Under the pieces are notes generated by a model, which ran no database searches, was not told the origin of the DNA, and saw nothing but the letters and a program-made list of their open reading frames with translations. Below, one piece after another: positions 4,744-62,926 of a stretch of 64,000 nt of DNA (the stretch's first letter is position 1; each line of letters starts with the position of its first letter). The position numbers and the translations under genes are program-made. Origin of the DNA: an uncultured delta proteobacterium (GTDB lineage: Bacteria; Desulfobacterota; Binatia; Binatales; Binataceae); contig CAWBYV010000008.1 of NCBI GenBank assembly GCA_963793115.1, positions 228,250 to 292,249 of the forward strand, written 5' to 3'.

Positions 4744-5714
4744 GTGTGGAGACCGTCGGTGACTCTCAAGGCGGTAATCGGACTGATTCGCGCCTCGGCG
4801 TTGTCTGCCGCGCTCTTCCTGGCCGGCGGGGCGATTCCGTTCGCCGGAGCGTTCCTGCTGCTGCTCACGCCCGCGCCGATAATCGGCCATGCGGTCGGAC
4901 GTCCGGGCGCGGTGTGGCGCACGATGGCGGCCGTCGTGCTGACCGCGACCGTGGTGGGGCTGGCGGCTGGTCCGTTCGCCCTGATCACCTACACGGTATC
5001 GTTCGGGTTGGCGACCGCGATCATCTGTTACATGCTGGAGCGACAGATGCGCTTCGAGGCGATTGTCGCCGTCACGACCGGGGCGGTGCTGGCCGCCGGG
5101 TCGATCATGCTGGTGATAGCGGCCGGATCGCCGGCCGCGCTGGTCGCCACGTTCCGCGACGGTTTGTCGGCGGCGCTGGCGCGCACTGACGAAATCTACA
5201 AACTGATGGGAATCAGCCCCGGAACCGAGCTGGATTCGCGCGCCAAACTGACTGGCATGATCGTCCAACTGGGCCGGCCCTTGCCGGGATCACGGCGGCG
5301 TCCACGGTGCTGATCAATCTGGCGGTCTTCTGGCGATGGGTCGGCAAGAAGCGGCTGTCGTACAAGCTGTTCGGCGATCTGGCCCGATGGTCAACGCCGG
5401 AGTGGCTAATCTGGGTGCTGATTGCGGCCGGGTTCGCGCTGTTCGTTCCGGCCGAGCAGGCGCGCACGGCCGCGTTGGACGTGTTCATCGGTGTCGCGAC
5501 GATTTACTTCTGCCAGGGCTTGGCGGTGATGGCCTTCTATCTCAAAATGCTGTCCACACCGGCGCCGTGGCGTGGCGTAATCTACTTCATCGCCGGCGTT
5601 CAGCCGGTGCTGGCGGCGCTGGTTTCGGCGGTCGGGGTGTTCGACCTGTGGATCGACTTTCGCCGCCTGAGGCCGACCAGCCCGCAAGCCGATAGCTTCA
5701 GCGATTTGACGTAG
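4744..5714 (+). CDS. DUF2232 (YybS-like) polytopic membrane protein (frame break near 5265-5275)
   Basis: Two adjacent ORFs (4744..5313 and 5307..5714), both entirely hydrophobic multi-TM. Reading across a GGGCCGGCCC run joins them (..TGMIVQLG / PALAGITAASTVLINLAVFW..). The same rpsR-DUF2232-rplI placement occurs in other bacteria. Confidence 0.55.
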
Positions 5715-7316: not shown

Positions 7317-7760
7317 CTCCTCCCTTCCCTGAGAGGCCTCGCCGGGAGCCCACTCTCTCTCCTCAGCAGTTTTAGACGTAAAACACTGATGAACGTTTCA
7401 AGCAAGGCCCATGCCTCGGCCCTGGAACCGTACGACCTTCAAAAAAACACCGGAAATCAAGGCTGTTGCCGTGATCCAACCGGTTTGACCGATTCGGAGA
7501 GGCAGGTGCATATCCCGAATTCCAGTGACTGATTTGAAACAGGCGGGTGGGATAACTGCCCCTAATCCGCCATTCAGTCGCCCGCTGTTCGCCTTCGGGA
7601 TGGCTGCCACGGCCGGCTTCAGACCAGATCGAGCGCGACTCCGGCGCCGGTTCGTTCGCAAAATAGACAAATAAAGCGCGGCGAGGCTTCCCCGCTTGGA
7701 ACGGCGCTTTTATACTGCCGGATGGGTATCTACGATGGCGAAAGGTTTTAGCGGGTTGCG

Positions 7761-9027: not shown

Positions 9028-10128
9028 GTGATCGGATTGAAAGCAGATCAACATTTGGCCGCAGGACCCTCACCCGCACGCGCTCCCATCGGCGATATCC
9101 GGGAAAGCTCGGACCCCGCCGGCGATCGAGCTGGCAAGCATCAGTCGGCCGCGCGCAGGCCGTTAGTGCTCGGTCCGGGCAGCCGCGCGCTGTATTACCT
9201 GATGGTCGCGATGTTGCACGCGCTCAGCCTCATTCCCGACTTCATCCTCTATCCGATCGGAGTCGCGGGCGGATTCATCGCCTATCTGCTCGATCGGCGG
9301 CACGTGAAGATCGGGCTCAAGAACCTTTCATTCGCGTTTCCCGACCGCACCCTCGACGCTCGAAAGCGAATCCTGCGCGCCTCGTATATCAATCTCGGCC
9401 GCGCCGGAGCCGAATACATCCGGTTGGGCGGCTTTTTCTACCGCAGACTTAGGAGGCGCGTGGACTACGACCGCCTCGAATACTTTCACGAGCTGCAAGC
9501 CCGCTATCCGAATCGCGGCATTCTCGTCCTGAGCGCCCATTTCGGGAACTTTGAGCTGCTGGCGGCGGCGCACGCGATGCACGGTTACCCGATCAGCCTC
9601 GTGCATCATACCCAGAGCTTTCTCGCGGGCGACGCGCTCACGACGTTCGTGCGCCATCGCGCCGGCGTTGACACCCTCCGCAAGCATTCGGCCGCGCGTG
9701 CCGTGCTCCGCGTGCTCAGAGACGGCGGCCTGGTCGGGATTCCGTTCGATCAGAACGCCAAGCGTAGCGAGGCGCTGTTCCTGCCGTTCTTCGGCGAGCC
9801 CGCCGCGACCACCAGCGGTCTGGCGCGAATCGCGATGATCTCGGGCGCGGCGGTTGTGTCGGCGTTCATCGTTCGCCAGCCCGATAATCGGAGCCATCGA
9901 ATCATGATCCACGATGAAATTCCCCTGCAACGGAGCGGCGAACCGGAGCGGGATATCGAGGAGAACACCCGCCGGTTCCTCAACGCGGTCGAGGACACCG
10001 TGCGCCGCTATCCCGAGCAGTTCCTGTGGACGCACCGGCGCTACAAGACCCGCCCGCGCGGGATGGAGCCGGTCTACGACGACACTCCGCGCCATCGCCA
10101 TCGCGACGCCGCGAAATCGCGCACCTGA
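9028..10128 (+). CDS. lipid A biosynthesis lauroyl/myristoyl acyltransferase family protein (LpxL/HtrB-like)
   Basis: N-terminal TM helix, then the LPLAT core (ILVLSAHFGNFELL, GIPFDQNAKRSEALFLPFFGEPAATTSGLARIA, YPEQFLWTHRRYKTRP). The true start is probably the internal ATG near 9202. Confidence 0.75.
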   Translation: MIGLKADQHLAAGPSPARAPIGDIRESSDPAGDRAGKHQSAARRPLVLGPGSRALYYLMVAMLHALSLIPDFILYPIGVAGGFIAYLLDRRHVKIGLKNLSFAFPDRTLDARKRILRASYINLGRAGAEYIRLGGFFYRRLRRRVDYDRLEYFHELQARYPNRGILVLSAHFGNFELLAAAHAMHGYPISLVHHTQSFLAGDALTTFVRHRAGVDTLRKHSAARAVLRVLRDGGLVGIPFDQNAKRSEALFLPFFGEPAATTSGLARIAMISGAAVVSAFIVRQPDNRSHRIMIHDEIPLQRSGEPERDIEENTRRFLNAVEDTVRRYPEQFLWTHRRYKTRPRGMEPVYDDTPRHRHRDAAKSRT

Positions 10129-19013: not shown

Positions 19014-20266
19014 GTGGACGTGGACGAGCTTAAGCAGACCGATCCTGAAATCTACGATCTCATCAAGCACGAGGAGCGCTACGAGTTCGATTCGATTCGC
19101 CTGATACCGTCGGAGAACTACGTCTCGAAGGCGGTGCTTGAAGCCACCGGATCGGTCCTCGCCAATAAATATTCCGAAGGCTACCCGGGCCGCCGTTACT
19201 ACGAGGGTCAGCGCTACGTCGATCGGCTGGAGACCGTGGTCGTCGAGCGCGCCAAGGCGCTGTTTCACGTCGAGCACGCCAACGTTCAGCCGTACTCGGG
19301 CTCGCCGGCGAATCTCGCCGTCTACTACGCGCTGGCCAAGCCGGCCGAGAAGTTGATGGGTTTGGCGCTGCCGCATGGCGGCCATCTGAGCCACGGATGG
19401 GGCGTGACGCTGTCGGGAAGCCTGTGGACCCGGTGCCTTACGAAGTCGATCGCGAAAGCCATCGAATCGACTACGACGCGCTCCGCGACCGGGCGCGAAT
19501 CGAGCGGCCGCGGATAATAATCGCGGGCACCACGGCTTATCCGCGCCAGCTCGACTTCAAGATTTTCGGCGAGATTGCCAGGGAGGTCGGCGCGTACCTG
19601 TTCGCCGATATCTCGCACATCGCGGGCCTCATCATCGGCGGCGTGCATCCCGATCCCGCGCCTTACGCCGACGTGATCATGACCACCACGCACAAGACCC
19701 TGCGCGGCCCGCGCGGCGCGATGATCCTGTGCCGCAAGGAGCTGGCCGGGCAGATCGATCGCGCGGTTTTTCCGGGGCTTCAGGGCGGCCCGCACAATCA
19801 CACCACCGCCGCGATCGGCGTGGCGCTGCACGAAGCCGCGACTCCCGCTTTCAGAGAATACGCCCATCAGGTGGTGCGCAATGCCAAGGCGCTGGCCGCC
19901 GAGCTGACCAATCGCGGCTTCCGGCTCGTCTCCGGCGGGACCGACAATCATCTTGTGCTTATCGACCTGACCAACCGCAGCGTGATTGGCAAGAAGGCCG
20001 CCAAGGCCCTCGATGCCGCCGGAATCGTCGTGAATTTCAACACCGTGCCCTACGATCCGCGCAAGCCTTTCAGCCCCAGCGGAATCCGTCTCGGGACACC
20101 GGCCGTCACGTCGCGCGGGATGGGTGAGCCGGAGATGCGGCAAATCGCCAAATGGATGGACGACGCCGTTTCGCATGTTGACGACGAGGCGCGGCTCAAG
20201 CGGATCGCGGGCGAAGTCACCGAGCTGTGCCGCAATTTCCCCGCGCCAGGGATCACGATCGACTAG
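19014..20266 (+). CDS. glyA: serine hydroxymethyltransferase (frame break near 19415)
   Basis: AGGAGG at 19005 then GTG. Conserved SHMT blocks (RLIPSENYVSKAVLEATGSVLANKYSEGYPGRRYY.., TTTHKTLRGPRGAMI). The two ORFs 18942..19517 and 19397..20266 join if one G is added to a GGG run (..VTLSGKPVDPVPYEV..). Confidence 0.85.
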
Positions 20267-22547: not shown

Positions 22548-23371
<824 letters not shown>

Positions 23372-29999: not shown

Positions 30000-32900
30000 T
30001 TAATGGAAGTCGTGCGAGCGGGGGATCGCGGCGTCGAGGCGGAGCTCGGCGAAGCGCTGGCCGCGCACGTTGATCACGCCGTCGGCCTTTTGCAGCACGC
30101 CTTCGACCATCAGGATTTGCGCGCGATGGAGCAGCGCGCGGTGCCGCTGGAATACATCCGGGATGACTATAGCATTGGCTATTCCGGTTTCATCCTCGAG
30201 CGTGACAAAAAGGAAGCCCTTCGCGGTGCCCGGCCGCTGTCGCACGATCACGACGCCCGCGACTCTGACGGTCGAACCGTGAGCGGCGCTGGCCAATTCC
30301 GCCGCGCTCAGCACGCCGCGCGCCTTGAGCCTCGATCTGAGATGGGCCATCAGATGGGGGCCGGTCGTGACGCCGGTTGAAGCATAGTCGGCAACGGTTT
30401 CCTCGACCGGCGTCATCGTGGGAAGCGGCGCGGTTCCGGGAGCCGGCTCCGCACCGGCGAGCAGGCTTTGCGGGTCGCGCTCGACGGCGGCGACCTGCCA
30501 TAGAGCGTCGCGGCGCTCCAGAGTGAATGCGCTGAACGCGCCGGCGTGAGCGAGCGCGTCGATTTCGCGCCGGTTGGGACCGACGCGCGCGCTGAAGTCG
30601 GCGATCGATCTAAAGGGCCGGATGGCGCGTTCGCGCTCGATCGTGTGCGCGGCTTCGTCGCGGAGTCCGGCGATGTATCTGAGGCCAAGGCGGAGCGCTC
30701 TCAGTCGGGGGCTTGTCTCCGCACTCTCCCTTCTGCACCTCTCCCTGACCAGTCGCCACCGGCGCGGGGAGAGGTCGCCTCTTGATTTGCTACTGCAAGT
30801 CGCGAGGCGGGTGAGGGTAAACGTGCGAGAAGACCATCGCCAGAAGAGTAGGAAGGCAATACCCTCACCCGGCGCGCAGACGCGCCGGCCTCTCCCGCGC
30901 CGGTGGCGACTGGTCAGGGAGAGGCGAAGAGCAGAGCGTCGGCTGATCCTCGAGCGTGCATTTCCAATTGGAGCGCGTGACATCGATCGGAAGCACCGTG
31001 ACGCCGTGGCGTTGGACGTCTTTGACCAGAGTCGAGGGATGGTAGAAGCCGAGCGGATAACAATTGAGCATCGCGGCAAAGAACGCCGCCGGATGATGGC
31101 ACTTCAGATACGCGGAGGCATAGGCGATAAGCGCGAAGCTGGCGGCGTGCGATTCCGGAAAGCCGTAAAGCGCGAATGAAGTGATCGATCGCACGATCTC
31201 GTCGGCGCGGGCACCGGTGATCCGGTTGCGCGCCATTCCGTCGCGCAGCCGCAGCTCGATCTTTTCCATCCGCGCCGCCGAGCGCTTGAACCCCATCGCG
31301 CGGCGCAGCTCCTCGGCTTCGCCGCCGCTGAAACCCGCCACGGTCATCGCCATCCTGAGCAACTGTTCCTGAAAGAGCGGCACGCCGAGCGTGCGGCGCA
31401 AAATTGGTTCGAGCGAAGGATGAGCATAGCGGACCGGCGCGCGGCCGTTGCGGCGATCGAGATACGGATGGACCATTTTTCCTACTATCGGTCCGGGCCG
31501 GATTATCGCAACCTCGACCACCAGGTCGTAAAAGTTACGCGGCTTCATCCGCGGCAGCGTCGCCATCTGGGCGCGGCTTTCGACCTGAAAGACGCCGACC
31601 GTGTCGGCCCGCCGCAGCATCGCGTAGACCTCTGGATCGTCCGGCGGGAGATGGGCGAGGTCGACCGCGACGCCTTCATGTTGGCGGACGAGCGGAAGAG
31701 CCTCCTCCAGTACGGCGAGCATCCCCAGCCCGAGCAGGTCGATCTTGATGATCCCCAGGTCTGCGCAGTCTTCCTTGTCCCACTGGACGACCACCCGCCC
31801 CGGCATCGAGGCCGGCTCCAGCGGCACGATCTCGTCGAGCGGCCCCGCGCCGATCACCATCCCGCCGCTGTGCTGGCCGAGATGGCGCGGGAGACCCTGG
31901 AGCGGCGCACCAGTCCGATCAGCAGCCGGATTCGCGGGGTGCGGGGATCGATGCCGCCATTGTGGAGCAGCGCCGCGATATCATCGTGATCGTCGCGAAA
32001 CTCGTAGACGCGGTTGAGCTTCGCGAGGCGATCGACCTGAGCGAGCGAGAAGCCCAGCGCCTTGCCGGCCTCGCGCACGGCGCTGCGCGTGCGATAGGTA
32101 ATCACGTTGGCGGTCATCGCGGCGCCGCGCTCGCCGTAACGGCGATAGACGTACTGAATCACCTTCTCGCGCTGATCGCCGCTGGGCAGGTCGATATCGA
32201 TATCGGGCCACTCGCCGCGTTCCTCGGACAAAAAGCGCTCGAACAGGAGTTCCATCCTGACCGCGTCGACCGCGGTGATTCCGAGCGCGTAGCAGACCGC
32301 ACTGTTGGCCGCCGAGCCGCGGCCCTGCGCCATGATCCGGTTTTCGCGGCAAAACTGCACAACGTCCCATACGATCAAAAAGTAGCCGGCGAGCTTGAGC
32401 CGCTCGATTACGCCGAGCTCGTGCTCGAGCTGCTGGCGCACGCGCGGCCCGGGCTCCGCGCCCCATCGTTCGCGCGCGCCCGCCCGGGTCAGTGCGCGCA
32501 GGTAGCTGTCGGGCGTTTCGCCGGGCGGGATCGGATAGTCGGGAAACCGGTAGCCCAGGTCCTTGAGCGTGAACTCACATCGCGCGGCGATTTCGCGGGT
32601 CGCAGCGATCGCGCCCGGCAGATCGCGGAACGACGCTGCGACTTCGGCCGGCGGTTTGAGATAGCGCTGGTTGTTGACCCACAGCGCCCGCCCGGCTTCG
32701 TCCAGCGTGGTCTTGAGCCGGATACAGGTGAGCACGTCGAGCAATTCGCGCTCGGTTCCGGTGTGACAGACGTCGTTGGTCGCGACGATCGGAACTCGCA
32801 TCGCGGCGGCGAGCGCGAGCAGCTTGCGATTGAGCCGCTCCTGGCCGGGATCGAGATGGCGCTGGAGATCGATAAAGAGATTTCCGGCGCCGAGGCTCGC

Positions 32901-33389
32901 GCCGAGCCGGTCGCATAGTTGACGCGGATTTTCGCCCCGCAAGAGCATCCGCGAGACCGGGCTGAAAACGCCGCCGGCGATACAGATCAGGCCGGCGCCG
33001 AATCGCTCGAGGTCGTCGAGGCTGATGCGGCCCTCGCCCTTGGGAGCGCGCAGCTTCGAGCCGGTGATCATCCGGCAGAGATTTTTGTAACGTGCACGAT
33101 CGGGAACCAGGATGTAGAGCCGCGACGGCGCGGCATCGCGCTCGCGCCCGGATTGCCCGACGTTATCTTCCAGAGTCAGCTCGGCGCCGACTATCGCCTT
33201 GATCCCGGCGCGGACCGCGGCGTGATAAAAGCGGGGCGCTCCGTAAAGTCCGTCGCGATCGCCCAGCGCGAGCGCGGGATAGCCGAGCGCGGCGGCGCGA
33301 TCGACCAGGTCCTCGGGGGTTGCGGCGCCTTCGAGAAAGCTGAACGCGCTGCGCGCGCGCAGCTCGATATAGTCAGAGTGAGTAGTCAT
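30000..33389 (-). CDS. dnaE2: error-prone DNA polymerase DnaE2 (ImuC), interrupted by a roughly 190-bp palindromic repeat insertion near 30736-30926
   Basis: Three ORFs (31854..33389 PHP/pol III alpha N-terminal, 30865..31860 fingers/thumb, 30000..31079 OB-fold C-terminus) are colinear with DnaE2. Frames change at 31860 and inside the repeat element. Confidence 0.8.
30736..30926. repeat. composite REP/MITE-like element: two inverted units (head TACCCTCACCCG.. tail ..TGGTCAGGGAGAGG) forming a roughly 190-bp hairpin, inside dnaE2
   Basis: Left arm 30738-30774 (CCTCTCCCTGACCAGTCGCCACCGGCGCGGGGAGAGG) is the reverse complement of right arm 30889-30924. Inner GGGTGAGGGT / ACCCTCACCC at 30810-30819 and 30861-30870. 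Confidence 0.6.
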
Positions 33390-33408: not shown

Positions 33409-33572
33409 CAGACGACCCTCACCGGCGAGCCATTTGCTTACGCAAATGCTCGCCGACCTCTCCCTGGTCAGGGAGAGGTGTAGATTTGGCGGCGCTTTTC
33501 TTCGCCTCTCCCTGACCAGGGAGAGGCCGGCGCGGACGAGCGGAAGCTCGCTATACGCCGGGTGAGGGTAGC
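33409..33572. repeat. composite REP-like element (two units tail-to-tail) in the imuB-dnaE2 intergenic region
   Basis: GACCCTCACCGGCGAGC..CCTCTCCCTGGTCAGGGAGAGGTG (33409-33480) and the inverted unit CCTCTCCCTGACCAGGGAGAGG..CCGGGTGAGGGTA (33504-33572). Confidence 0.6.
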
Positions 33573-33641
33573 CTGAACGCACCGCTCCATCGTGTGCTCC
33601 TCCAACATTAGTCACGGCATTCCATGCGGGCGGTTGAATAG

Positions 33642-35357
33642 CTAGTCATAGAGTCCATCCACGAACCATTGATGAGAGCGCAGGTCGCAGAACATCCGGT
33701 AGACAGCGCCGTCGGCGAGCGCGACATCGTAGTAATCGCGGGCGAGGGGAGTGGCTATTGTTCTGGAAAAAGACCTCTCCCCGAACCCCTCGCCCGCAGG
33801 GGAGGGGCAGGAGATGGTTGCGCCATTTTCTCTATGGTTCCCCCTTTCCAGGGAGAGGGTGGGGGTGAGGGTTTCTTCGCGCCACCATTCGCCCTCACGC
33901 CGCCACGGCCCCGAGATCGAGACCACGCGCGCGCATACGGTTCGTCCCCGCACAAATTCCGGCACGCCGCCGCGGGTGCACATCACCTCGACTTCCTCGG
34001 CGGGGCGAATCGCGCGGATCACGAGCCGCGCGATATTAGCGGCTACGTCTTTTTCAGGTGGAAGAGATACCCTCACCCGGTGAGCGCAGCGCTCACCGGC
34101 CTCTCCCCGCGCCGGGGGCGACTGGTCAGGGAGAGGTGAAGAAGGAGGAACGGGAGAAGGCGGAGGGGGATCGAACGGGACGACTTCGATCGCTTCGGGG
34201 CGCCAGGAATTGACGGGCTTGAGCGTGCCGACGCGACCGGGGCCACAGATGGCGGCCAGGCGCGCGATCGTGGTCTGCAAGCGATCTGGAGCAGGCGAGG
34301 GCGGCAGGAACAGGTCGGTCTGCGCCGGGCGCGGGACTCGCGGCTCGGCGGTGATTCGGATCGTTCCGATCGCGGCGGACGGCGGCGCCGCTTCGAGACT
34401 CAGGATTATCAGCGCGAGTAGCGAGCGGACCTCGTTAGTGGGCGCCGCGATCGCAACCCGCCGATCATAAACGCCGTGCCCGTCAAGCCCGAGCGAGAGC
34501 ATCAGGTCGCCGGCGACCAGGCCGCGAAGTTCGAGCCGCGCGGCCAGCCGCTCGACCATCGGGCGCATCACGAAGCCGAGCGGCTCGAGCATTTCGATTC
34601 CGTAATCCAGCTCGACCGTCTCGGCGAACAGCTCGGCGCGCGGGCAGGGGATGAACGGCGCATTATTTTCGCCGCGCGCGAGGCGGGCCAGATCCACGCC
34701 GCGTGCGCCGAGCCGGCTGCCGAGCGCGCAGGGTTCTATCCGGGCAAGCTCGCCAAGCCGGCGGATACCCCATCGCGCGAGCGTAAACACCAACTCGGCG
34801 CCGTCGGGATCGTCCGCGCCGGTGGCGAGCACGTCGAGCGGCATCCAGTCGAGGAACTCGCGCTCCTTACAAGCGGGGATCGCTCTTTGCCCGCCGCATC
34901 GCGCCGCGAGCCAGGCGGCCTCCTTGCTCGACGCGATTCCAATCGCGGCGTCGAATCCGACTTTCGCCGCGCGCCGCGCGAGTTCCGCCGCCATCTGCTC
35001 TTCCGTGCCATGGATTCCGGCGAGTCCTGCCAAATCGAGATACGCACATCCCGGCCCGCCGTCCTCGACTATCGGTGAGAATGACTCGGCTGCGTCCAGT
35101 ATCGCATCATGGGCCGAGCGTTCGGCGGCCGGCGACGGCGCAACGGGAATCAGCCCGGATACGAGCGCGCGCGCCTGCGCGACCGTCATCCCGGCCCGCA
35201 CGCCGGAGGTCCTCGCGCACGCGGAGACCGCGGTAAGCTCGGCGTGTCCTTCGCGGCCGGCGCTCAGCGCGACGGGCCGATCGCGCAGCTCGGGATTGGC
35301 GCGGACGATCGCGGCGACGGGAAAATCGCCAATCAGGATACATGCAATACGAGCCAT
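33642..35357 (-). CDS. imuB: ImuB (Y-family polymerase-like) protein of the imuA-imuB-dnaE2 mutagenesis cassette, carrying in-frame repeat-derived insertions
   Basis: 571-aa intact ORF. N-terminal UmuC/DinB-like fold (MARIACILIGDFPVAAI..). Conserved C-terminal motif DYYDVALADGAVYRMFCDLRSHQWFVDGLYD. Two REP-like units (33771-33875, 34068-34137) are translated in frame as SSPLPDQSPPARGEAGERC.. and ..EGEWWREETLTPTLSLERG... Confidence 0.75.
   Translation of the reverse strand: MARIACILIGDFPVAAIVRANPELRDRPVALSAGREGHAELTAVSACARTSGVRAGMTVAQARALVSGLIPVAPSPAAERSAHDAILDAAESFSPIVEDGGPGCAYLDLAGLAGIHGTEEQMAAELARRAAKVGFDAAIGIASSKEAAWLAARCGGQRAIPACKEREFLDWMPLDVLATGADDPDGAELVFTLARWGIRRLGELARIEPCALGSRLGARGVDLARLARGENNAPFIPCPRAELFAETVELDYGIEMLEPLGFVMRPMVERLAARLELRGLVAGDLMLSLGLDGHGVYDRRVAIAAPTNEVRSLLALIILSLEAAPPSAAIGTIRITAEPRVPRPAQTDLFLPPSPAPDRLQTTIARLAAICGPGRVGTLKPVNSWRPEAIEVVPFDPPPPSPVPPSSPLPDQSPPARGEAGERCAHRVRVSLPPEKDVAANIARLVIRAIRPAEEVEVMCTRGGVPEFVRGRTVCARVVSISGPWRREGEWWREETLTPTLSLERGNHRENGATISCPSPAGEGFGERSFSRTIATPLARDYYDVALADGAVYRMFCDLRSHQWFVDGLYD
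33771..33875. repeat. degenerate REP-like unit inside imuB coding sequence
   Basis: GACCTCTCCCCGAACCCCTCGCCCGCAGGGGAGGGG and TCCAGGGAGAGGGTGGGGGTGAGGGT, divergent copies of the tail and head motifs. Confidence 0.4.
34068..34137. repeat. REP-like unit inside imuB coding sequence
   Basis: TACCCTCACCCGGTGAGCGCAGCGCTCACCGGCCTCTCCCCGCGCCGGGGGCGACTGGTCAGGGAGAGGTG, full head-palindrome-tail architecture. Confidence 0.55.
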
Positions 35358-35372
35358 CGGAGTCGCATTGGT

Positions 35373-36240
35373 TCAGGCGCACCTAACCCCTAACCCCTTC
35401 CCGACGCGGGAAGGGGAACCTTGCTCCATTTCTCCACCGCTCCCGTCCACCAGCGCGTGCCAGCTCGCGCGCGCGCCGACGCCGCCCAGCTTGTTGCGCG
35501 CGACCAGCGCCTCGATCGCGAGACCGTCGAACAGCGAGGGGGCTCCGATCGCGCGACGGCTGAAGCAGGCCTGGTTGCGGCTGAGCATGAGACTTTGCGC
35601 GGCGAACGTTCCGCACATCCGGAAGGTCGCGAGCACGATCACGGCGGCGCCGGTCCGCTCCGCGATCCGGGCGATTCGAAGCGCCGCGCTGTGCGGAATC
35701 GCGCGAGTGGAGTTGCCGAAGTCGATAACGACCAGGCCGAAGCCGCCCGCCTCCAGGACCAGTTCAGCGGCACGAACGGTCGCCACCGGCGCGGTCGCCC
35801 CCGGCGTCGCCATCGGCGCGGCGGCGGCATTCCATTCAAATCGAGGCGAGCGATCGACGCGCGGCGATGACCACAACACGCGCGTGAGGTCGGCGCCTGG
35901 CCGCCGCGACAGTCACAGGATCGAAACTGCCCGCTGAATCGATCCACGCCGCAGCTTCACCACCGCGGGTCGCTGACGCGACGAAGCAGGCGGCGAGCGA
36001 GGTCTTGCCGGCGCCGACCGGACCGACGATTTCGCTGATTCTGCCGCGTACGATTCCCGCGCCCAGCAGACGGTCGATCAGAGTGAGCCCCGAGCTTAGG
36101 CGGCGGGCTTTGCGGGTAAGTTCGCGGCCGGTAAAAACTCCTGTGATTTTAAGAGCTTGTAATGTTTTGACAGATCCGGCAAGAGGCGCCGAATTGGCTT
36201 GAGAAAGCCCGCTCAAAGTGCTGGAAAGCGACGCAGCCAC
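35373..36240 (-). CDS. imuA: ImuA (RecA/SulA-like) protein (frame break near 35860)
   Basis: ORF 35836..36240 has the Walker A-like loop (EIVGPVGAGKTSLAACFVASA). Continuation in ORF 35373..35879 (..GGFGLVVIDFG..). Position directly upstream of imuB. Confidence 0.6.
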
Positions 36241-36325
36241 GAAGGCTACTTTCGCTTTTTATTCGTCTTATGTCAACGCTAAAGAGTCAAGAACTTCATG
36301 GCCGACAGGCAGGCTGCGTGCAGAG

Positions 36326-36382
36326 TACCCTCACCCGGCGAGCGCGACGCTCGCCGACCTCTCCCTGGTCAGGGAGAGGTGT
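36326..36382. repeat. REP-like unit in the imuA upstream region
   Basis: TACCCTCACCCGGCGAGCGCGACGCTCGCCGACCTCTCCCTGGTCAGGGAGAGGTG (head, 15-nt palindrome, hairpin tail). Confidence 0.55.
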
Positions 36383-36415
36383 TAAAGAGCACATCCCAGT
36401 TGTACGTGCGGGTGT

Positions 36416-37437
36416 TCAGATTTCGCGGTCGATCTGTTCGTCGATCAGGATGCGCAGGCTGTCGCGATAGATCGAGGGCTTGAGCTGCGCGAGGATGTTG
36501 CGCGCCACTTCGACCTGCTCCGCGGCCATCGCGCGGGCCCGGGCGAGCAGGCGCGGACTGCGCAGGATCTGCATCGCGCGTGCGAAGTCGGCGCCGTCGA
36601 GCGCGCGGCCGTTGCCGAACAGGCCGCGCAACTCGGGGTCGGACTCGACCGCGAGCACTACCGGTAGCGACGGAATTCCTTCGCGCAGATCGGAACCGAC
36701 CGGCTTGCCGGTTTTCGCTTCGGGGCCGAGGACATCGAGCAGGTCGTCGATCATCTGAAACGCGAGCCCGATCGCGCTGCCAAGATCCGCCATCGCAGAC
36801 GACAATCGAGCGGGCGCTCCGGCGAGCTTGGCAGCGACTTTGCCACCGGCCGCGAACAGCGATCCGGTCTTGCGCCCGATCACTGCCATATAGTCGGTGA
36901 GGCTCACGGCGGGGTTGCGGCGCAGCCGCCCCTCCATCACTTCGCCCTCGGTCAACTGGATACAGGCCTGCGCGGCGGTGCGCACCAGATGCTCCTCGAA
37001 GCGGCCGCACAACTCGAAGGCGCGGCAGAACAGATAATCGCCGGCGACCATCGTGGGTCCCGCACCATATCGCATGAAGGCCGAAGGCTTGCCGCGGCGC
37101 AGCGTGCCGCCGTCGATGATATCGTCGTGAAGCAGCGTGGCCGAATGAATCAGCTCGAGCGCGATCGCGGCGTCAACCGCGTCAACGACCGTGCGTTCAT
37201 TGCCGCCGCATCCGCGATGGACGAGCAGAATGAACAGCGGGCGCAGGCGCTTGCCGCCGCCATCGATAAGATAGTGGCAGATTTCGGAGATCAGCCGCTC
37301 GCGCGAGTCGAGCAGGCGCGCGAGCTTTTCTTCGACCGCCAGCAGGTCGGCCTCGACGATACGGGCGGCTCGGCGATACGAGCAAGCGGCTCGATCATCT
37401 CCGGGGCGGCCAGCACTACGGATTTTGCCTTCTCCAT
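36416..37437 (-). CDS. polyprenyl diphosphate synthase (trans-IPPS, IspB/GGPPS-like) (frame break near 37380)
   Basis: ATG at 37437 (MEKAKSVVLAAPEMIEPLA). First DDxxD (LLHDDIIDGG) and second DDxxD (FQMIDDLLDV) motifs. Starts 3 nt after the cofE stop. Confidence 0.75.
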
Positions 37438-37439
37438 GC

Positions 37440-38192
37440 TCATCGAAACAGATCAGCTTCGGCCGGCCGAATCAGCGCCTTGGCGCTGCCCCCGGACGGA
37501 TCGTATTTGTAGCCGCGCACTATTACGGCCGGAATCGCCGCCGCCTTGCCCATCAAGAGGCCTGCCGCCGACGCGATCTCGTCGGCGATCGCGACGACCG
37601 TGTGATGGAGCTCGCGGCTGGCCAAATCGGTGGTGCCGCGCAGATCGAGCATCGGGTTCATCCCGGCGATTCCGAGGCAGATTTCGGTCAGGCCGTCGCG
37701 CCATGGACGCCCGAACGTATCAGTGATGAGCACCGCGATCTCGACCCCCGTCAGCCGCTTCAACTCGGCGCGGATTCGCTCCGCCGAGGCGTCGGGATCG
37801 GCCGGCAGCAGAATCGCGCACCCGTCGCTCATGCTGTTCGATTCGTCCACTCCCGCGTTGGCGCAGACCCATCCCGGTCCGGTCTCGACGATAAGCACCG
37901 CGCGATCCATCCGCACGATCCGGCTGGTCTGTCTCAGCACGAGCTCGATCGCGCGAGGATCTTTGTCCCATCGCCTGGCGAAGTTGATCGCCAGCTCCGA
38001 GGGCTCGACCTCCTTGAGATCGACCAGCCGGCCCTCGGACTTCGAGACTATCTTCTGGCAAATCACGACGATATCGCCGTGGGCGAGTCCCATCGCGTCT
38101 TTTTCGAGCGCGCGCGTCAGAAGCTCGGCGAGATTGTCGCCCTGCTTGACCAGAGGCATCCCCTCTACCGGGGTCAGGGTCAGAGTAGCCAC
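37440..38192 (-). CDS. cofE: coenzyme F420-0:L-glutamate ligase
   Basis: 250 aa. CofE signature (PLVKQGDNLAELL.., GDIVVICQKIVSKSEGR, CANAGVDESN). Confidence 0.8.
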   Translation of the reverse strand: MATLTLTPVEGMPLVKQGDNLAELLTRALEKDAMGLAHGDIVVICQKIVSKSEGRLVDLKEVEPSELAINFARRWDKDPRAIELVLRQTSRIVRMDRAVLIVETGPGWVCANAGVDESNSMSDGCAILLPADPDASAERIRAELKRLTGVEIAVLITDTFGRPWRDGLTEICLGIAGMNPMLDLRGTTDLASRELHHTVVAIADEIASAAGLLMGKAAAIPAVIVRGYKYDPSGGSAKALIRPAEADLFR

Positions 38193-38206
38193 AAGAAGCC
38201 TTAAGC

Positions 38207-39166
38207 CTACACCTCGAGTGCACGCAGAACCACATCCGCGAGCCGGGCTGCGCGCGCCGGCGTGCTCATAACAGTATCAGTGGTTAGCGCACGCATGCCA
38301 AGCTTTTCGATTGGGGCTGCGTAACGCCAATCAACCTTGTCGAGCACGAAGACGCTCGCGATGTCGTGATACAGTTTCGCCACCCCCAGCGGCGAGACCT
38401 CATGCCCGAGCCCGCGCATCATCTTGTCGGCGGGTCCCTTGATGGTCTTGCCGCCGACGATCGGGCTGATCGCGGCGACGTGCGCGCGCACCGATCTCAG
38501 CGCCGCGCGCATCCCGCGCAGCGCGAGTATCGGGCCGATCGAGACGAAGGGATTCGACGGCGCCAGGATCGCCGCCGCACAGCCCCCGATAGCCGCGATC
38601 GCGGCGGGCAGCGGATGAGCCCGGTCGGCGCCGCGCAGCTCGATTCGCTCGACGCGTCCGCGTGCGCGGCCGCGCACGAAATATTGCTGAAAAGGAATCG
38701 CCGCGCGGCCGCGCAGCTTTACGAAAGTGCGCACGCGGTCGTCGCTCATCGGGAGGATTCTCGCCCGCACCCCGAACCGGCCGGCGATCTCGCGCGTGAC
38801 CCGGCTCAGCGCGACGCCGCGGCTCAATTGCTCGGTGCGGAACAGATGGGTTGCCAGATCGCGATCACCGAGCGCGAACCATCCCCGGCCGTAGAAGCGC
38901 TCAAGCGCGCCGAGCGTGTTGAAGCTCTCGGCGTCGAGGCCCCATCCGTGCGCGCGGCTGACCACGTGGGCGAGTGTGTAGATGACGGTGTCGATGTCGG
39001 GTGATACATGAAGGCCGTAAAAATGTTCGTCGTCGCCGGTGTTGACGACGACGGTCAGGCGGCCGGGATCGACGCGGCGAACCAGCCCGCGTAGGAACCT
39101 AGCCGCACCCACTCCCCCCGCCAGCGTGATGATCGTGCTGGGGTTGGTCTTTCGGCCGTGCTCCAT
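38207..39166 (-). CDS. cofD: 2-phospho-L-lactate transferase
   Basis: Start at internal MEHGR. CofD/YvcK-family N-terminus (IITLAGGVGAARFLRGL.. NTGDDEHFYGLHVSPDIDTV). Assigned CofD by cofE/cofH/cofG context. Confidence 0.75.
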   Translation of the reverse strand: MEHGRKTNPSTIITLAGGVGAARFLRGLVRRVDPGRLTVVVNTGDDEHFYGLHVSPDIDTVIYTLAHVVSRAHGWGLDAESFNTLGALERFYGRGWFALGDRDLATHLFRTEQLSRGVALSRVTREIAGRFGVRARILPMSDDRVRTFVKLRGRAAIPFQQYFVRGRARGRVERIELRGADRAHPLPAAIAAIGGCAAAILAPSNPFVSIGPILALRGMRAALRSVRAHVAAISPIVGGKTIKGPADKMMRGLGHEVSPLGVAKLYHDIASVFVLDKVDWRYAAPIEKLGMRALTTDTVMSTPARAARLADVVLRALEV

Positions 39167-40358
39167 TGGGCGCCTTTTTTCCGTAGAGCTTCCTGTAAGT
39201 GGTTGTGCGCTCGACAGGGATGCGTCCAATCTCACGCGCCTTTTCCTCGATCAGATCGACCGGCACGAACTCGCCGGCGGTCCCGCCGGCCTGCGCCGTG
39301 ATGCTCTCTTCCATCAGCGTGCCCGAAAAGTCGTTGCATCCGGTCTTGAGCGTGAGCGCTGCGAGATCGACGCCGAGCTTCACCCACGAGGTTTGGAGAT
39401 TGTCGATCCAGCCGCGCAGAAAGAGCCGCGAGAACGCGTACATCCTGAGATCGGGAAGTCCGGTTTCGGATGGCGCGACCAATCCTTTGCGGTAGAGCAC
39501 GGTGTTCTCGTGGATGAAGCGCAGCGGCACGAACTCGGTGATGCCGCCGGTCTGCTTCTGAATGTCGCGGATCAGGCTCAGATGGTTGACCACGTGGCGC
39601 GGACTTTCGAGATGCCCGTACATGATCGTGGAGGAGGTCGGCACGCCGAGCGAATGCGCGGTGGTGATGATATCGACCCACGCGGCGACATCGACCTTCT
39701 TGTGGCTCAGGATCTCGCGCACGCTGTCGTCGAGAATTTCCGCCGCGGTGCCGGGAATCGATCCGAGTCCGTTGTCGCGGAGCATCGCGATATACTCGCG
39801 ATATTCCATCTGCACGCGGCGCGCGCCGTACATGATCTCCATCGGCGAGAAGGCGTGAACGTGGATCGCGGGGAATTCGCGCTTAATCGCGCGGAGCAGG
39901 TCGCGATACTTGAACGGCGGCATGTCGGGATTGATGCCGCCCTGCATGCAGATTTCGGTTGCGCCGCGCGCCTGCGCGTCCGCGACCTTGGCTAGAATGA
40001 CCTCGTCGGCGTGGTCGTAGGCGTCGGACTCCCACTTCTGGCGCTTGAACCCGCAGAACTGGCATCCGACGAAACAGATATTGGTGAAGTTGATATTGCG
40101 GTTGACGACGTAGGTGACCTCGTCGCCGACATCCTCGGCGCGCGCGAGATCGGCGCACTTGATCACCGCACGCAGGTCGTCGCCGGCGGCGGTGTAGAGC
40201 GCGAGGCCGTCTTCGGCGTTTAGTTCTTCGCGCCGCAGGCTCTTTTCAAGCGCGGCGCGCACGCTCGCCGATACCGGGCGCATCAGGACGCTGAGCGGCG
40301 TCGCCTCGATCTCGTTCACATAGTCGCGAAGTTCGGCCAAGTCCATAGTTGAACTCAC
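39099..40358 (-). CDS. cofH: FO synthase subunit 2 (radical SAM)
   Basis: Radical-SAM CxxxCxxC (CFVGCQFCGF) and the CofH-type C-terminal domain. 3' end overlaps cofD by roughly 130 nt, so the exact C-terminus is uncertain. Confidence 0.8.
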   Translation of the reverse strand: MSSTMDLAELRDYVNEIEATPLSVLMRPVSASVRAALEKSLRREELNAEDGLALYTAAGDDLRAVIKCADLARAEDVGDEVTYVVNRNINFTNICFVGCQFCGFKRQKWESDAYDHADEVILAKVADAQARGATEICMQGGINPDMPPFKYRDLLRAIKREFPAIHVHAFSPMEIMYGARRVQMEYREYIAMLRDNGLGSIPGTAAEILDDSVREILSHKKVDVAAWVDIITTAHSLGVPTSSTIMYGHLESPRHVVNHLSLIRDIQKQTGGITEFVPLRFIHENTVLYRKGLVAPSETGLPDLRMYAFSRLFLRGWIDNLQTSWVKLGVDLAALTLKTGCNDFSGTLMEESITAQAGGTAGEFVPVDLIEEKAREIGRIPVERTTTYRKLYGKKAPNGARPKDQPQHDHHAGGGSGCG

Positions 40359-41593
40359 GCGTTACCTCCAGTCGCAGTTCCAGTGCCCGCCTCGATCGCA
40401 AGCGTCGCCAGCCGCGGCGCGAGCTGCGGGTCTACCCATTCATCATTGATATATTCGGGATAGATTGCCAGACGTTCCGTGAGCCGGAAGCCCGCGCGGG
40501 CGCATCGCTCGGCGAGCATCGCGATATGCGGCCACGGTGCTTCGGGGTTGACATAGTCCTTGCTGAGCGGCGAGATCCCGCCCCAGTCGTTGATTCCGGC
40601 GCTCAGGAACAGCTCGATCGAATTCGGCGACAGGTTCGGCGGCGCCTGCACGTTCATCTTGCCGCCCAGGACCAGCCGGGCGGTCGCGATCGCGCGCGCC
40701 ATCTCCATCTCGCCGGGCTCGGGCGCGCCGGCCATCGCGATATCGGGCTTGGCGCGGAAGTTCTGGACGATCACTTCCTGGATATGGCCGTGACGCTCGT
40801 GCGTATCGCGGATCGCAATCAGGCTCTGCGCGCGCTCGGCCGGCGTCTCGCCGATGCCGAGCAGGATGCCGGTGGTGAAGGGGATCCTCAACTCGCCGGC
40901 CTCGTCGATCATCCGCATCCGTAGCGCGGGGTCTTTGTCGGGCGCCGCCTGATGGACTCCGCCGCGTTCGCGCAGATGGGGCGAGACATTTTCGAGCATC
41001 AGCCCCATGCTGGCGTTGAGCGATCTCAGCCCCCGCATCTCGTCGCGGGTCATCAGGCCGGCGTTGGTATGGGGCAATAATCCTTCTTTCAGGGCGATCC
41101 CGCACGCGCGCCCGACGTATTCGATCGTGCTGCGCACGCCGAGCGATTTGAGCGTCTCGCGATACTCGCGGAAACTCACTTCGGGCTTGTCGCCGAGGCA
41201 CATCAGCGCCTCCTTGCAGCCGAGCTTGCGTCCCTGGCGCGACCACTCGGCGATCTCTGCGGGCATCATGGTCCACGCGCCGGGATCGCCGGGATCCTTG
41301 CGGAACGTGCAGTAGGAGCATCGATCGCGGCACAGATTGGTGATCGGCAGGAAGACCTTGCGCGAGTAAGTGACGTCGCGGCCTTTGGAAAGGTCGCGCA
41401 TGCTTGCTGCCGCGCGAAGAATCGCGGGCAGCTCAGCGTCGGAACATTCGATCAGCGCGATCGCATCGTGCTCGGACAGTCTACCGCCGCAGAGCGCCCG
41501 ATCGAGAATGTCGCGAATGATCGGCCGGATCGCCGCCTCGGTCGCGGCTGCGCCAGCGGCGTTCAGAGACGAGTCAAATTGCTCCAGCGCCAT
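40355..41593 (-). CDS. cofG: FO synthase subunit 1 (radical SAM)
   Basis: Radical-SAM motif CRDRCSYCTF. 412 aa. 4-nt overlap with cofH. Confidence 0.8.
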   Translation of the reverse strand: MALEQFDSSLNAAGAAATEAAIRPIIRDILDRALCGGRLSEHDAIALIECSDAELPAILRAAASMRDLSKGRDVTYSRKVFLPITNLCRDRCSYCTFRKDPGDPGAWTMMPAEIAEWSRQGRKLGCKEALMCLGDKPEVSFREYRETLKSLGVRSTIEYVGRACGIALKEGLLPHTNAGLMTRDEMRGLRSLNASMGLMLENVSPHLRERGGVHQAAPDKDPALRMRMIDEAGELRIPFTTGILLGIGETPAERAQSLIAIRDTHERHGHIQEVIVQNFRAKPDIAMAGAPEPGEMEMARAIATARLVLGGKMNVQAPPNLSPNSIELFLSAGINDWGGISPLSKDYVNPEAPWPHIAMLAERCARAGFRLTERLAIYPEYINDEWVDPQLAPRLATLAIEAGTGTATGGNA

Positions 41594-41686
41594 GACTGAT
41601 CGCGGTTATAGGTCATCGGGTATGGTGAGGCAACCGAGGCGCTATCAGCCTTTCCCGCGCCCTGTCTCAGAGTTGAATCCGCATTT

Positions 41687-60609: not shown

Positions 60610-62926
60610 ATGCTCTCGCTGGCGCGCGGCAAGGAAGGCACTTTCCACCTGGTCTCCGGCTACCGGCCCCAGGGCGATCAACCCGCCGCGATCGACGCGC
60701 TCAACCGCAACCTCGTGGCGGGCGTCAAGCATCAGGTGCTGCTCGGGGTCACGGGCTCGGGCAAGACCTTCACGATGGCCAACGTGATCGCGGAGTTGAA
60801 TCGGCCCGCGCTCGTGATCGCGCCCAACAAGACCCTGGCCGCGCAGCTATACAACGAATTCAAGAGCCTGTTTCCGGAAAACGCGATCCGCTACTTCGTT
60901 TCGTATTACGACTACTATCAGCCCGAAGCCTACGTTCCTTCCACCGACACCTATATCGAGAAGGACGCCAGCATCAACGACGAGATCGACAAGTTGCGCC
61001 ATTCGGCGACCAAAGCCCTGCTGGAGCGCAACGATGTTTTGATCGTCGCCTCGGTCTCCTGCATCTACGGGCTTGGCGAGCCGGAAGTGTACTTCGACAT
61101 GCTGGTGTTTATCGAGGAGGGGCAGACTCTCGATCGCGACCGGGTGTTGCGCAAGCTGGTGGATATCCGGTACCAGCGCAACGACTACGATTTCCATCGC
61201 GGGACCTTCCGCGTGCGCGGCGACACGGTCGAGGTGTTCCCGGCCTATGAAGAGAGCCGGGCGGTGCGGGTCGAGTTTTTCGGCGATCAGGTCGAGGCGC
61301 TGTACGAGATCGATCCGCTGCGCGGCAAGGTGATTCGCAAGCTCCAGAGCGTCGCGATCTATCCCGCCTCGCATTACGTAACGACCTCCGACCGGATGGA
61401 AATCGCGGTCCGGAATATCCGCGCCGAGCTCAAGGAGCGGCTCGAATTCTTTCGCGCGCACGACCGGCTGCTCGAAGCTCAGCGCCTGGAGCAGCGCACG
61501 CTGTACGATCTGGAACTGCTGGCCGAGATGGGATTCTGCCCCGGAATCGAGAACTATTCGCGCCATCTGACCGGCCGCGCGCCGGGACAGTCGCCGCCCA
61601 CGCTGCTGGATTATTTCCCGGACAACTACCTGGTGTTCGTCAACGAGAGCCACGTCACCATCCCGCAGCTCGGCGGGATGTACCGCGGCGACCGATCGCG
61701 CAAGGGGACTCTGGTCGAGTTCGGCTTCCGGCTCCCGTCCGCGCTCGACAACCGGCCGCTGAACTTCGAGGAATGGGAGGGGCTGGTCAATCAGGCGATA
61801 TATGTTTCGGCGACCCCCGGCGACTACGAGCTCAAGAAGTCCGATGGGCTGGTGGTCGAGCAACTGATCCGTCCCACCGGGCTTATCGATCCCGAGATCG
61901 AAGTTCGCAAGGCCGGGCACCCAGGTCGACGATCTGCTGGAGGAAATCCGCAAACGGGTCGAGGCGAAGGAGCGCGTGCTGGTCACCTGCCTGACCAAGA
62001 AGATGGCCGAAGACCTGACCGACTACTACCACGACCTGGCCGTGAGGGTCCGTTACCTGCACTCGGATATCGAGACCATCGAGCGCGTCGAGATAATCCG
62101 CAGCCTGCGCAAGGGCGATTTCGACGTGCTGGTGGGAATCAATTTGCTGCGCGAGGGTCTCGACTTGCCCGAAGTCTCGCTGGTCGCGATCCTCGACGCC
62201 GACAAGGAGGGCTACTTGCGCTCGGCCCGCTCGCTTATCCAGACCATCGGGCGCGCCGCCCGCAATCTGAACGGCAAGGTAATCATGTACGCCGACCTGA
62301 TGACCGGGTCGATGCGCCGCGCGATCGACGAGACCTATCGCCGCCGCGCCAAACAGCTCGCCTACAACCAGGCCAACGGCATCACGCCCACCACGATCGT
62401 AAAGGCGATCGACGCCTCGCTGGTCGAGATGTACTCGCCGGAATGGGCGGTGGTGCCCGAGATCGAAGAGTCCACCCGGAAAGAGGAGTTCATTCCGCCG
62501 CACGAGCTTCCCGATCAGATCACCAATCTGCGCCGCGAGATGATGGAAGCGGCGGTGAAGCTCGAATACGAACACGCCGCTCAGTTGCGCGACAAGATCA
62601 AGCGGCTGGAGCGGATGGCGTTCGGGCTCGATAAACCGAAACCGGCCGCGCCGGCGAAGCCGCCGGGCAGCGCCCATTCGGGCGCCAGCGACCAGGCGCG
62701 CGGACGGCACGAAGGTCACAAGGTCGTCGGAGTGAGCAGCGAGAAGCAGCTTCCGGGCCGGACGCGAGGAACGTCGCGGGGCAGGCACCACCGCTGCGGG
62801 CGGCACCGCCGCGGGCAGCACCGCTGCGGGCGCGTCGCAGAAGCAGGGCCGCTTGAAGCTGGTTCCAGATCGGCCGGAGTAAGCGGGAACGAAAGTTGCG
62901 AATCATCTCACTCGAACGGGTACTGA
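60610..62926 (+). CDS. uvrB: excinuclease ABC subunit B (frame break near 61915; C-terminal low-complexity tail may be artefactual)
   Basis: Walker A ([15 protein letters not shown]). Helicase motifs and the beta-hairpin region in ORF 60610..62634 up to roughly 61915. Continuation ..[68 protein letters not shown].. and the UvrB/UvrC-interaction helix ([12 protein letters not shown]) in ORF 61976..62926. Confidence 0.85.

Follow-up and report, generated by a model that had tools for sequence, protein, structure and literature searches.

In-frame copies of a REP/REPIN-like palindromic repeat in the imuA-imuB-dnaE2 mutasome operon of Candidatus Binataceae

Rickettsia palindromic elements (RPEs) are short palindromic repeats that occur between genes as well as within open reading frames (ORFs), where they add peptides in frame to the encoded proteins (Ogata et al. 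2000, in review PMC10969869). According to this review, nearly half of the RPEs are located inside ORFs. This article addresses a short palindromic repeat unit showing a comparable behaviour in a 64-kb stretch of DNA, hereafter the window, from an uncultured bacterium. In this window, the ORF list and Pfam matches identify imuA, imuB and dnaE2 as three consecutive minus-strand genes encoding a RecA-like protein, a Y-family-like protein with a clamp motif and a C-family polymerase, respectively. They form an ImuA-ImuB-DnaE2 mutasome cassette, organised as one operon, and the loci closest to it come from metagenome-assembled genomes (MAGs) of Candidatus Binataceae.

To our knowledge, in-frame colonisation by palindromic repeats was previously undescribed in the phylum Binatota, and classical repetitive extragenic palindromic (REP) elements are rarely reported within coding sequence. 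REPs and REPINs are said to be mobilised by RAYT transposases, a link credited to Nunvar 2010 and to Bertels and Rainey 2011. The data presented below indicate that a REP/REPIN-like repeat has probably colonised the mutasome operon of Binataceae several times, in frame and at tolerant sites. Comparisons of sequences establish that the copies belong to one family, that the same sites are filled in some genomes and empty in others, and that the reading frame is preserved. In-frame colonisation by palindromic repeats, best documented in Rickettsia, is thereby also recorded, with cleanly resolved filled and empty sites, in an uncultured phylum of free-living soil bacteria.

As for the mechanism, the units may be mobilised by a RAYT-type enzyme that recognises hairpins. 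Insertions would persist only at positions where the protein can accommodate additional residues, and only if their length does not disturb the frame. Translation of the units would then yield passenger peptides (PLPDQGE...RVRV and LSLTRER are examples), which are presumably neutral and lodged in disordered or surface segments.

Anatomy, copies and affinities of the repeat unit

The unit is about 65-95 nt long and comprises a TTCTTC-like lead, a hairpin CCTCTCCCTGACCAGGGAGAGG, a second hairpin of variable sequence and a tail GGGTGAGGGTA. In its long form, 15 nt (TCGCCmCCGGCGCGG) are inserted in the loop of hairpin CCTCTCCCTGACCAGGGAGAGG. The hairpin pattern occurs six times in the window, for 0.00 occurrences expected from shuffles. 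A covariance model (CM), R1, built from nine copies of the unit, matches six full units (U1 to U6, Table 1) and none elsewhere in the 64 kb. Helix 1 is invariant over 143 distinct copies, an invariance due in part to ascertainment, as the scan pattern demanded helix 1. In helix 2, changes affect both sides of every one of the nine pairs (107 cells; 27 ± 4 in shuffles, 22 or fewer in slid controls), in an alignment fitted to the model and thus biased towards structure. Because all nine pairs change on both sides, the second hairpin appears to be kept by compensatory change. An Rfam scan of the 30-37 kb region revealed no known RNA family, the only matches being sub-threshold chance ones (mir-627, ylbH).

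Inverted doublets are common. The window has two of them (U4/U3 and U2/U1), with a counterpart of the U4/U3 doublet at the same place of the imuB/dnaE2 spacer in the related contig L082. Pairs are also found in the imuB-centred loci L017 and L019. Furthermore, among contigs selected for the hairpin, minus/plus pairs 50-270 nt apart occur in L021, L050, L065, L070, L075, L077, L082 and L091.

The exact hairpin was found in at least 120 metagenome contigs from peat and soil. In 72 of the 120 hairpin-bearing loci, nhmmer detected 109 full units, and just three of the 120 include imuB or dnaE2. More than a quarter of these full units (27/109) lie in an open frame that extends at least 60 codons upstream and at least 40 codons downstream, and real coding copies were confirmed by Pfam or homology in six of the eight different host frames examined. 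Outside the mutasome, in-frame units with Pfam support are found in a FadB-like protein, where the copy lies between the ECH and 3HCDH domains (L033 2349-2410), in an N6_N4 DNA methylase, inside the N6_N4 domain (L079 2906-2967), and in a cyclase-AAA_16 protein (L032 5513-5584); coding insertions therefore extend beyond the mutasome. The idea that the units are designed for translation was rejected, since 55% of their frames are open, versus 56% in shuffles and 61% in random genomic segments; by orientation, 76% are open in reverse and 35% forward.

The anatomy of the unit is closest to that of REPs and REPINs: a short, highly conserved hairpin, a high copy number, a mostly extragenic location, frequent inverted doublets and compensatory changes. 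However, two parts of the Binataceae unit, the variable second hairpin and the G-rich tail, are atypical of classical REPs, and a weak motif search found no RAYT gene. The label of miniature inverted-repeat transposable element (MITE), which an earlier note made from this DNA alone had attached to the repeat, could not be retained. Like MITEs, the units are small non-autonomous repeats able to form in-frame fusions with host ORFs, but neither terminal inverted repeats nor a clear target-site duplication were found for the single unit, and no candidate parent insertion sequence with its transposase was seen in the 64 kb of this genome and about 1 Mb of fragments. Indeed, its ends (TTCTTC... and ...GGGTGAGGGTA) are not mutual inverted repeats, and only inverted doublets have matching ends.

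The comparison with RPEs, also made in the earlier note, fared better. Like RPEs, the units are both intergenic and intra-ORF, they keep the frame, they add their peptide at positions compatible with the fold, and individual copies are present or absent in related genomes. Palindromic in-frame insertions into ORFs were found in imuB of the window (U5, U7), in L082, L044, L019, L008 and L009, and in the FadB-like, methylase and cyclase-AAA_16 genes. By analogy, the unit would thus work like an RPE; the likeness is one of behaviour and carries no claim of membership in the RPE family. The sequences are presumably unrelated, the host belongs to the Binatota and not to the Rickettsiales, and the Binataceae units measure 65-95 nt versus about 100-150 bp. 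Moreover, only a few percent of the Binataceae copies sampled here are demonstrably coding, versus nearly half of the RPEs, and the coding copies concentrate in one operon.

Filled and empty sites in imuB and dnaE2

The intact 571-aa imuB ORF reads through both segments that the earlier note had regarded as repeat units, and both peptides quoted there are present in the translation. U5, at what is called here site 1, is a full-length canonical unit. U7, at site 2, is, judged by its alignment with L082, a real insertion relative to that contig but a composite rather than a canonical unit. Its match to the family is limited to its last (3') 24 nt (nhmmer E = 1.5). As a whole, U7 was rejected as a repeated unit, these 3' 24 nt alone being recurrent.

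L082, a JGI contig with 91% nucleotide identity to the whole cassette, lacks exactly the 123 nt of U7, equivalent to 41 codons, and CCCTC is found at each of the two junctions. At imuB site 1, L082 has a diverged orthologue of U5 and, in imuA, a 129-nt in-frame unit that is absent from the window. A unit almost identical to U5 occupies site 1 in L017, whereas this site is empty in L019, where site 2 contains an inverted pair that keeps the frame. P0003 and P0004, which are among the proteins 84-93% identical to ImuB, have an empty site 2, and so do P0006 and P0007, which are more distant; a different canonical unit lies there in P0002 and other inserts in P0005 and P0009. Although the ImuB of L044 is only 52% identical to that of the window, this contig has in-frame hairpin units at all four recurrent sites, i.e. 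the imuA loop, imuB sites 1 and 2 and the dnaE2 loop. The peptide PLPDQSPPARGEAGER is an example of an insert junction.

Such segments could also be ordinary lineage-specific low-complexity linkers that were never inserted and resemble repeats by their composition, as might be expected from two ImuB sites that are hypervariable in length across Binataceae even without any recognisable repeat, and from the lack of a second copy of the whole U7 in the available data. However, U5, U1 and U2 are full-length matches (55-79 bits) to a CM that derives mainly from other copies, they are mutually 94-95% identical over 37-49 nt, and over 100 unrelated contexts contain the hairpin. Above all, clean empty sites, with differences in length that are codon multiples, exist between contigs that are 91% identical, and these empty-site comparisons largely refute the linker explanation, which we regard as very improbable. 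The alignment of orthologues, proposed in the earlier note as a refutation test, agrees with insertion: L082 lacks U7, L019 has no insert at site 1, and the same peptides were not found without the repeat signature.

In dnaE2, the inverted pair described earlier is indeed present; it spans 30727-30935, and U1 encodes SSPLPDQSPPAR. The pair had been placed between the polymerase core and the OB fold, but it lies inside the HHH_6 domain, upstream of the OB fold. The DnaE2 of L082 has the domain order PHP, DNA_pol3_alpha, finger, HHH_6 and OB in Pfam, and its insert falls within the HHH_6 match (aa 795-927 against a 90-position model). The insert takes the place of eight residues between positions 878 and 887 of Taq Pol III alpha, which in the Taq structure we take to be the tip of a hairpin where the beta-binding domain begins. 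The insertion site of DnaE2 would accordingly be the tip of a beta-hairpin that opens its HHH_6 / beta-binding domain.

This site, located between KCT(L/I)E and ALRLGL, is empty, being reduced to one codon, in L003, L004, L005, L011 and L015. It is filled in seven relatives (Table 1), including L082 and L044, and all seven inserts are multiples of three without a stop codon. With no constraint on length, seven in-frame inserts out of seven would be expected by chance with a probability of about 5e-4. The earlier note had left undecided whether the dnaE2 insert keeps the frame: it does in these relatives, but not in the window as assembled. What recurs is the insertion sites and not one given element, as the same dnaE2 and imuB sites are filled by another family in L001. 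This different repeat family (GTCATTCCGAGCG..., with peptides such as VCHSERK and VIPSVGCRSEES) occupies positions 12392-12652 of L001 as well as its imuB linker, around 9200-9440.

ImuB consists of a catalytically dead Y-family polymerase-like N-terminal domain, followed by a QTDLF clamp-type motif (aa 346-350), a RecA-NT-like helix plus strands, a linker and an ImuB-C region, a domain order taken from that of mycobacterial ImuB (clamp motif, RecA-NT, linker, ImuB-C; PMC11791113). By analogy with the latter, site 1 would be the linker between RecA-NT and ImuB-C, and site 2 a loop within ImuB-C, between GPWRREGEWW and ARDYYDV. In an AlphaFold2 model of ImuB, the predicted local distance difference test (pLDDT) exceeds 90 for residues 1-340 and is below 50 at 397-483 and 496-535, the regions that hold both inserts. 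The model supports their location in a disordered, flexible or unmodelled segment; as to the surface loops considered in the earlier note, it gives no precise loop. The recurrent sites mark segments of ImuA, ImuB and DnaE2 that tolerate 20-90 extra residues, which may be useful for the engineering and modelling of the mutasome, a complex that is poorly understood to date.

Table 1. Genes of the mutasome cassette, repeat units and filled dnaE2 sites (positions refer to the window)
Feature	Positions	Strand	Remarks
imuA, RecA-like	35373-36240	-	two ORFs; Pfam RecA and Rad51 matches on N-terminal part
imuB	33642-35357	-	intact 571-aa ORF; PF00817; close homologues named ImuB in sources
dnaE2 (imuC)	~30000-33389	-	three frame segments; ORFs and comparison with L082
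U6, short form	36323-36390	-	CM 85 bits; between polyprenyl synthetase gene stop and imuA promoter region
U5, canonical long form, inside imuB	34065-34147	-	CM R1 78.9 bits; read in frame as SSPLPDQSPPARGEAGERCAHRVRVS
U7, composite hairpin insert in imuB	33749-33871		strand not assigned; 123 nt / 41 codons; in frame as TLTPTLSLERGNHRENGATISCPSPAGEGFGERSFSRTIAT
U3, imuB/dnaE2 spacer	33494-33573	+	CM 68.0 / 72.5 bits for the U4/U3 pair
U4, imuB/dnaE2 spacer	33411-33489	-	head-to-head inverted doublet with U3 (33411-33573)
U1, long form, inside dnaE2	30857-30935	-	CM 73.1 bits; oriented as dnaE2
U2, long form, inside dnaE2	30727-30822	+	CM 55.1 bits; inverted, tail to tail with U1
dnaE2 loop insert	30699-30945	-	247 nt: U1, 38-nt spacer, U2, flanks; between KCTLED and ALRLGL
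Second repeat type	35381-35421	-	CCCCTTCCCGCGTCGGGAAGGGG then TTAGGGGTTAGG; last imuA codons (..SPSRVGKGLGVRCA, stop)
dnaE2 site filled, L019			81 nt, single canonical unit
dnaE2 site filled, L008			267 nt
dnaE2 site filled, L001			261 nt, another repeat family
dnaE2 site filled, L009			84 nt
dnaE2 site filled, L002			60 nt
dnaE2 site filled, L082			147 nt
dnaE2 site filled, L044			69 nt

Apart from these inserts, imuB shows a polymorphic 30-nt tandem duplication (window 34828 / L082 ~6223). ATGA(V/I) repeats are present in one to three copies across P0001-P0004, and the repeated sequence contains the motif TCGCCACCGGCG. Right after the imuB stop, beside the repeat doublet, the window has a stretch of 58 nt (33584-33641) that L082 lacks, a further small indel polymorphism.

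Reading frames and assembly indels

As assembled, the dnaE2 insert of the window has a length of 3n+1, and the upstream frame meets a TGA at 30865-30867, while the downstream frame is open across the entire insert. The frame into ALRLGLRYI can be restored by two routes, either one additional G at 30894-30896 together with one additional C in the C5 run at 30707-30711, or any one-base deletion in 30865-30955. The loop piece of U1 is 14 nt long instead of 15, with GGG at 30894-30896 in place of GGGG, and the same loss also breaks the orthologous unit in L017, a MAG taken as long-read.

Two other indels of the cassette, both outside any unit, were identified by comparison with L082: one extra A at 35898, which is not a homopolymer extension, splits imuA, and dnaE2 lacks one G at 31903, where L082 reads GG. 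Frameshifts elsewhere in the window were counted by Pfam scans of abutting open frames, the frame plot based on G+C at third codon positions being too noisy. The DUF2232 gene is split at about 5190-5310 (Pfam model positions 1-162 and 162-290), glyA/SHMT at about 19170-19510 (positions 1-132 and 137-399) and an SDR gene at about 23045-23160 (positions 1-47 and 46-195). Probably, uvrB is also split at about 61.9 kb (61870-61930), where Pfam matches lie in a frame other than that of the 674-aa ORF, and nuoG and DegT may be split as well.

Considering the single-base splits in glyA, SDR, DUF2232 and imuA, the out-of-frame dnaE2 insert of the window is probably noise, and the frameshifts of dnaE2 and imuA are probably sequencing errors or assembly indels. 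Among relatives, frameshifts in imuB and dnaE2 were found in the 'contig_'-named MAGs L001, L003, L017, L018 and L019 only, whereas contigs with k-mer names and the JGI contigs L082 and L044 are intact, with the exception of the k141-named L016, in which the tblastn match to imuB lies in two frames across site 1. On the basis of contig naming, the 'contig_'-named MAGs are taken as long-read and the k-mer-named and JGI contigs as short-read.

The operon of the window might instead be a decaying pseudogene cluster, in which both the repeats and the frameshifts (35898, 31903 and the dnaE2 insert) result from lost selection and the proteins carrying inserts are non-functional in this strain. Against such a decay, imuB is intact over 571 codons, essential genes such as glyA show a similar indel, the frameshifts of relatives are confined to MAGs that naming suggests to be long-read, and two homopolymer corrections or one single-base deletion reopen the dnaE2 frame. 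Furthermore, the three cassette genes, compared with those of L082, have ratios of nonsynonymous to synonymous substitutions of 0.09-0.33, a range that leaves out a segment at the 3' end of imuB; at the level of this comparison, purifying selection is shown to act on the host genes imuA, imuB and dnaE2. It remains that the cassette has three or four frame-breaking indels in 6.4 kb, versus about five in the other 58 kb, that those at 35898 and 31903 lie outside repeat units, and that the first does not extend a homopolymer. Because of this excess, we keep the possibility that the operon has recently started to decay in this strain as an explanation, albeit an unlikely one.

Passive colonisation, in frame, of a selected operon is preferred here. 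An exact look-up of the ImuB protein gave no record of a second, independent copy of the contig. The ImuB of the window is 100% identical to P0001, a protein of a public collection located on a 400-kb contig. Whatever the origin of the indels, the gene calls on this contig call for frameshift-aware annotation. More generally, frameshifts and "hypothetical" peptides in long-read MAGs of Binataceae can stem from repeats combined with indel noise, which should serve as a warning to annotators.

Clustering in the mutasome operon

All six canonical units matched by the CM are confined to some 6 kb out of the 64 kb, and so are the seven pyrimidine-armed hairpins (7/7), i.e. those with one arm made of C and T only. 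Of the ten units in the relatives' imuB-centred loci, a set chosen without regard to the repeat, nine are located in the cassette. L082 and L044 have four and three exact hairpins, respectively, counts that are among the highest in the 120 hairpin-selected contigs. On rough counts, inflated by orthologous insertions, the enrichment of the cassette is tens-fold, and its operon looks like an insertion hot spot for the unit. The association with a mutagenesis operon is the most interesting part of these observations.

Much of the clustering may be due to weak selection on an operon that is rarely used and rich in linkers. Alternatively, the repeats would not be passive, the operon being a preferred target, with insertion into single-stranded DNA on induction, or the copies being selected, with hairpins that act on the transcription or the translation of an SOS operon. 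This alternative draws on the counts given above and on the occupation of the same four sites in L044 despite its divergent ImuB. However, the polymorphic occupancy and the presence of different families at the same sites (L001, L002) fit tolerance better than a required function, uvrB of the window is devoid of any unit, and orthologous insertions inflate the counts; non-passive repeats are therefore considered improbable. The more specific proposal that the unit has, in Binataceae, a specific target to which it returns, or a reservoir, in the imuA-imuB-dnaE2 operon, through insertion coupled to SOS or to single-stranded DNA or through hairpins co-opted for polymerase expression or assembly, is speculative and rather doubtful. 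If true, it would mean that a selfish repeat family is mechanistically tied to the mutagenesis machinery of the cell.

Several points weigh against colonisation by a mobile repeat followed by passive tolerance. Simple tolerance does not account for the strong clustering in the cassette, and the excess of frameshifts in the cassette described above points the same way. The whole C-terminal third of ImuB is poorly modelled (pLDDT below 50), which leaves no placement of the inserts in surface loops at the level of residues. The units are not depleted in stops, so that the survival of frames would reflect selection after insertion and not the design of the element. There is no clear target-site duplication: the CCCTC found at both junctions of U7 is also a motif of the element, and no duplication is evident at the L019 dnaE2 unit. 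Lastly, a six-frame search of about 1 Mb of loci with motif expressions (HUH...Y, YxxNP), which is a weak search on fragmentary data, gave no RAYT/IS200-like transposase.

A second type of repeat, described as a hairpin CCCCTTCCC...GGGAAGGGG followed by TTAGGGGTTAGG, makes up the 3' end of imuA. It is also found at the imuA/imuB junction of relatives (L082 6785-6866, L001 7953-7990, L019 7963-7984) and in the unrelated contigs L126, L075 and L083.

The 15-nt piece of the long form, present in units of the window at 30897-30911 and 34102-34116 and in the imuA unit of L082 at about 7350-7365, also occurs as native coding sequence in imuA (35776-35794) and imuB (34815-34828). This sharing between long-form units and native genes suggests that local template switching or gene conversion may have occurred within the cassette.

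Upstream of the cassette, the window carries a polyprenyl synthetase gene (36419-37471) and, on the minus strand (37443-41605), F420 biosynthesis genes with Pfam matches to F420_ligase, CofD and two radical-SAM CofH/CofG-like proteins.

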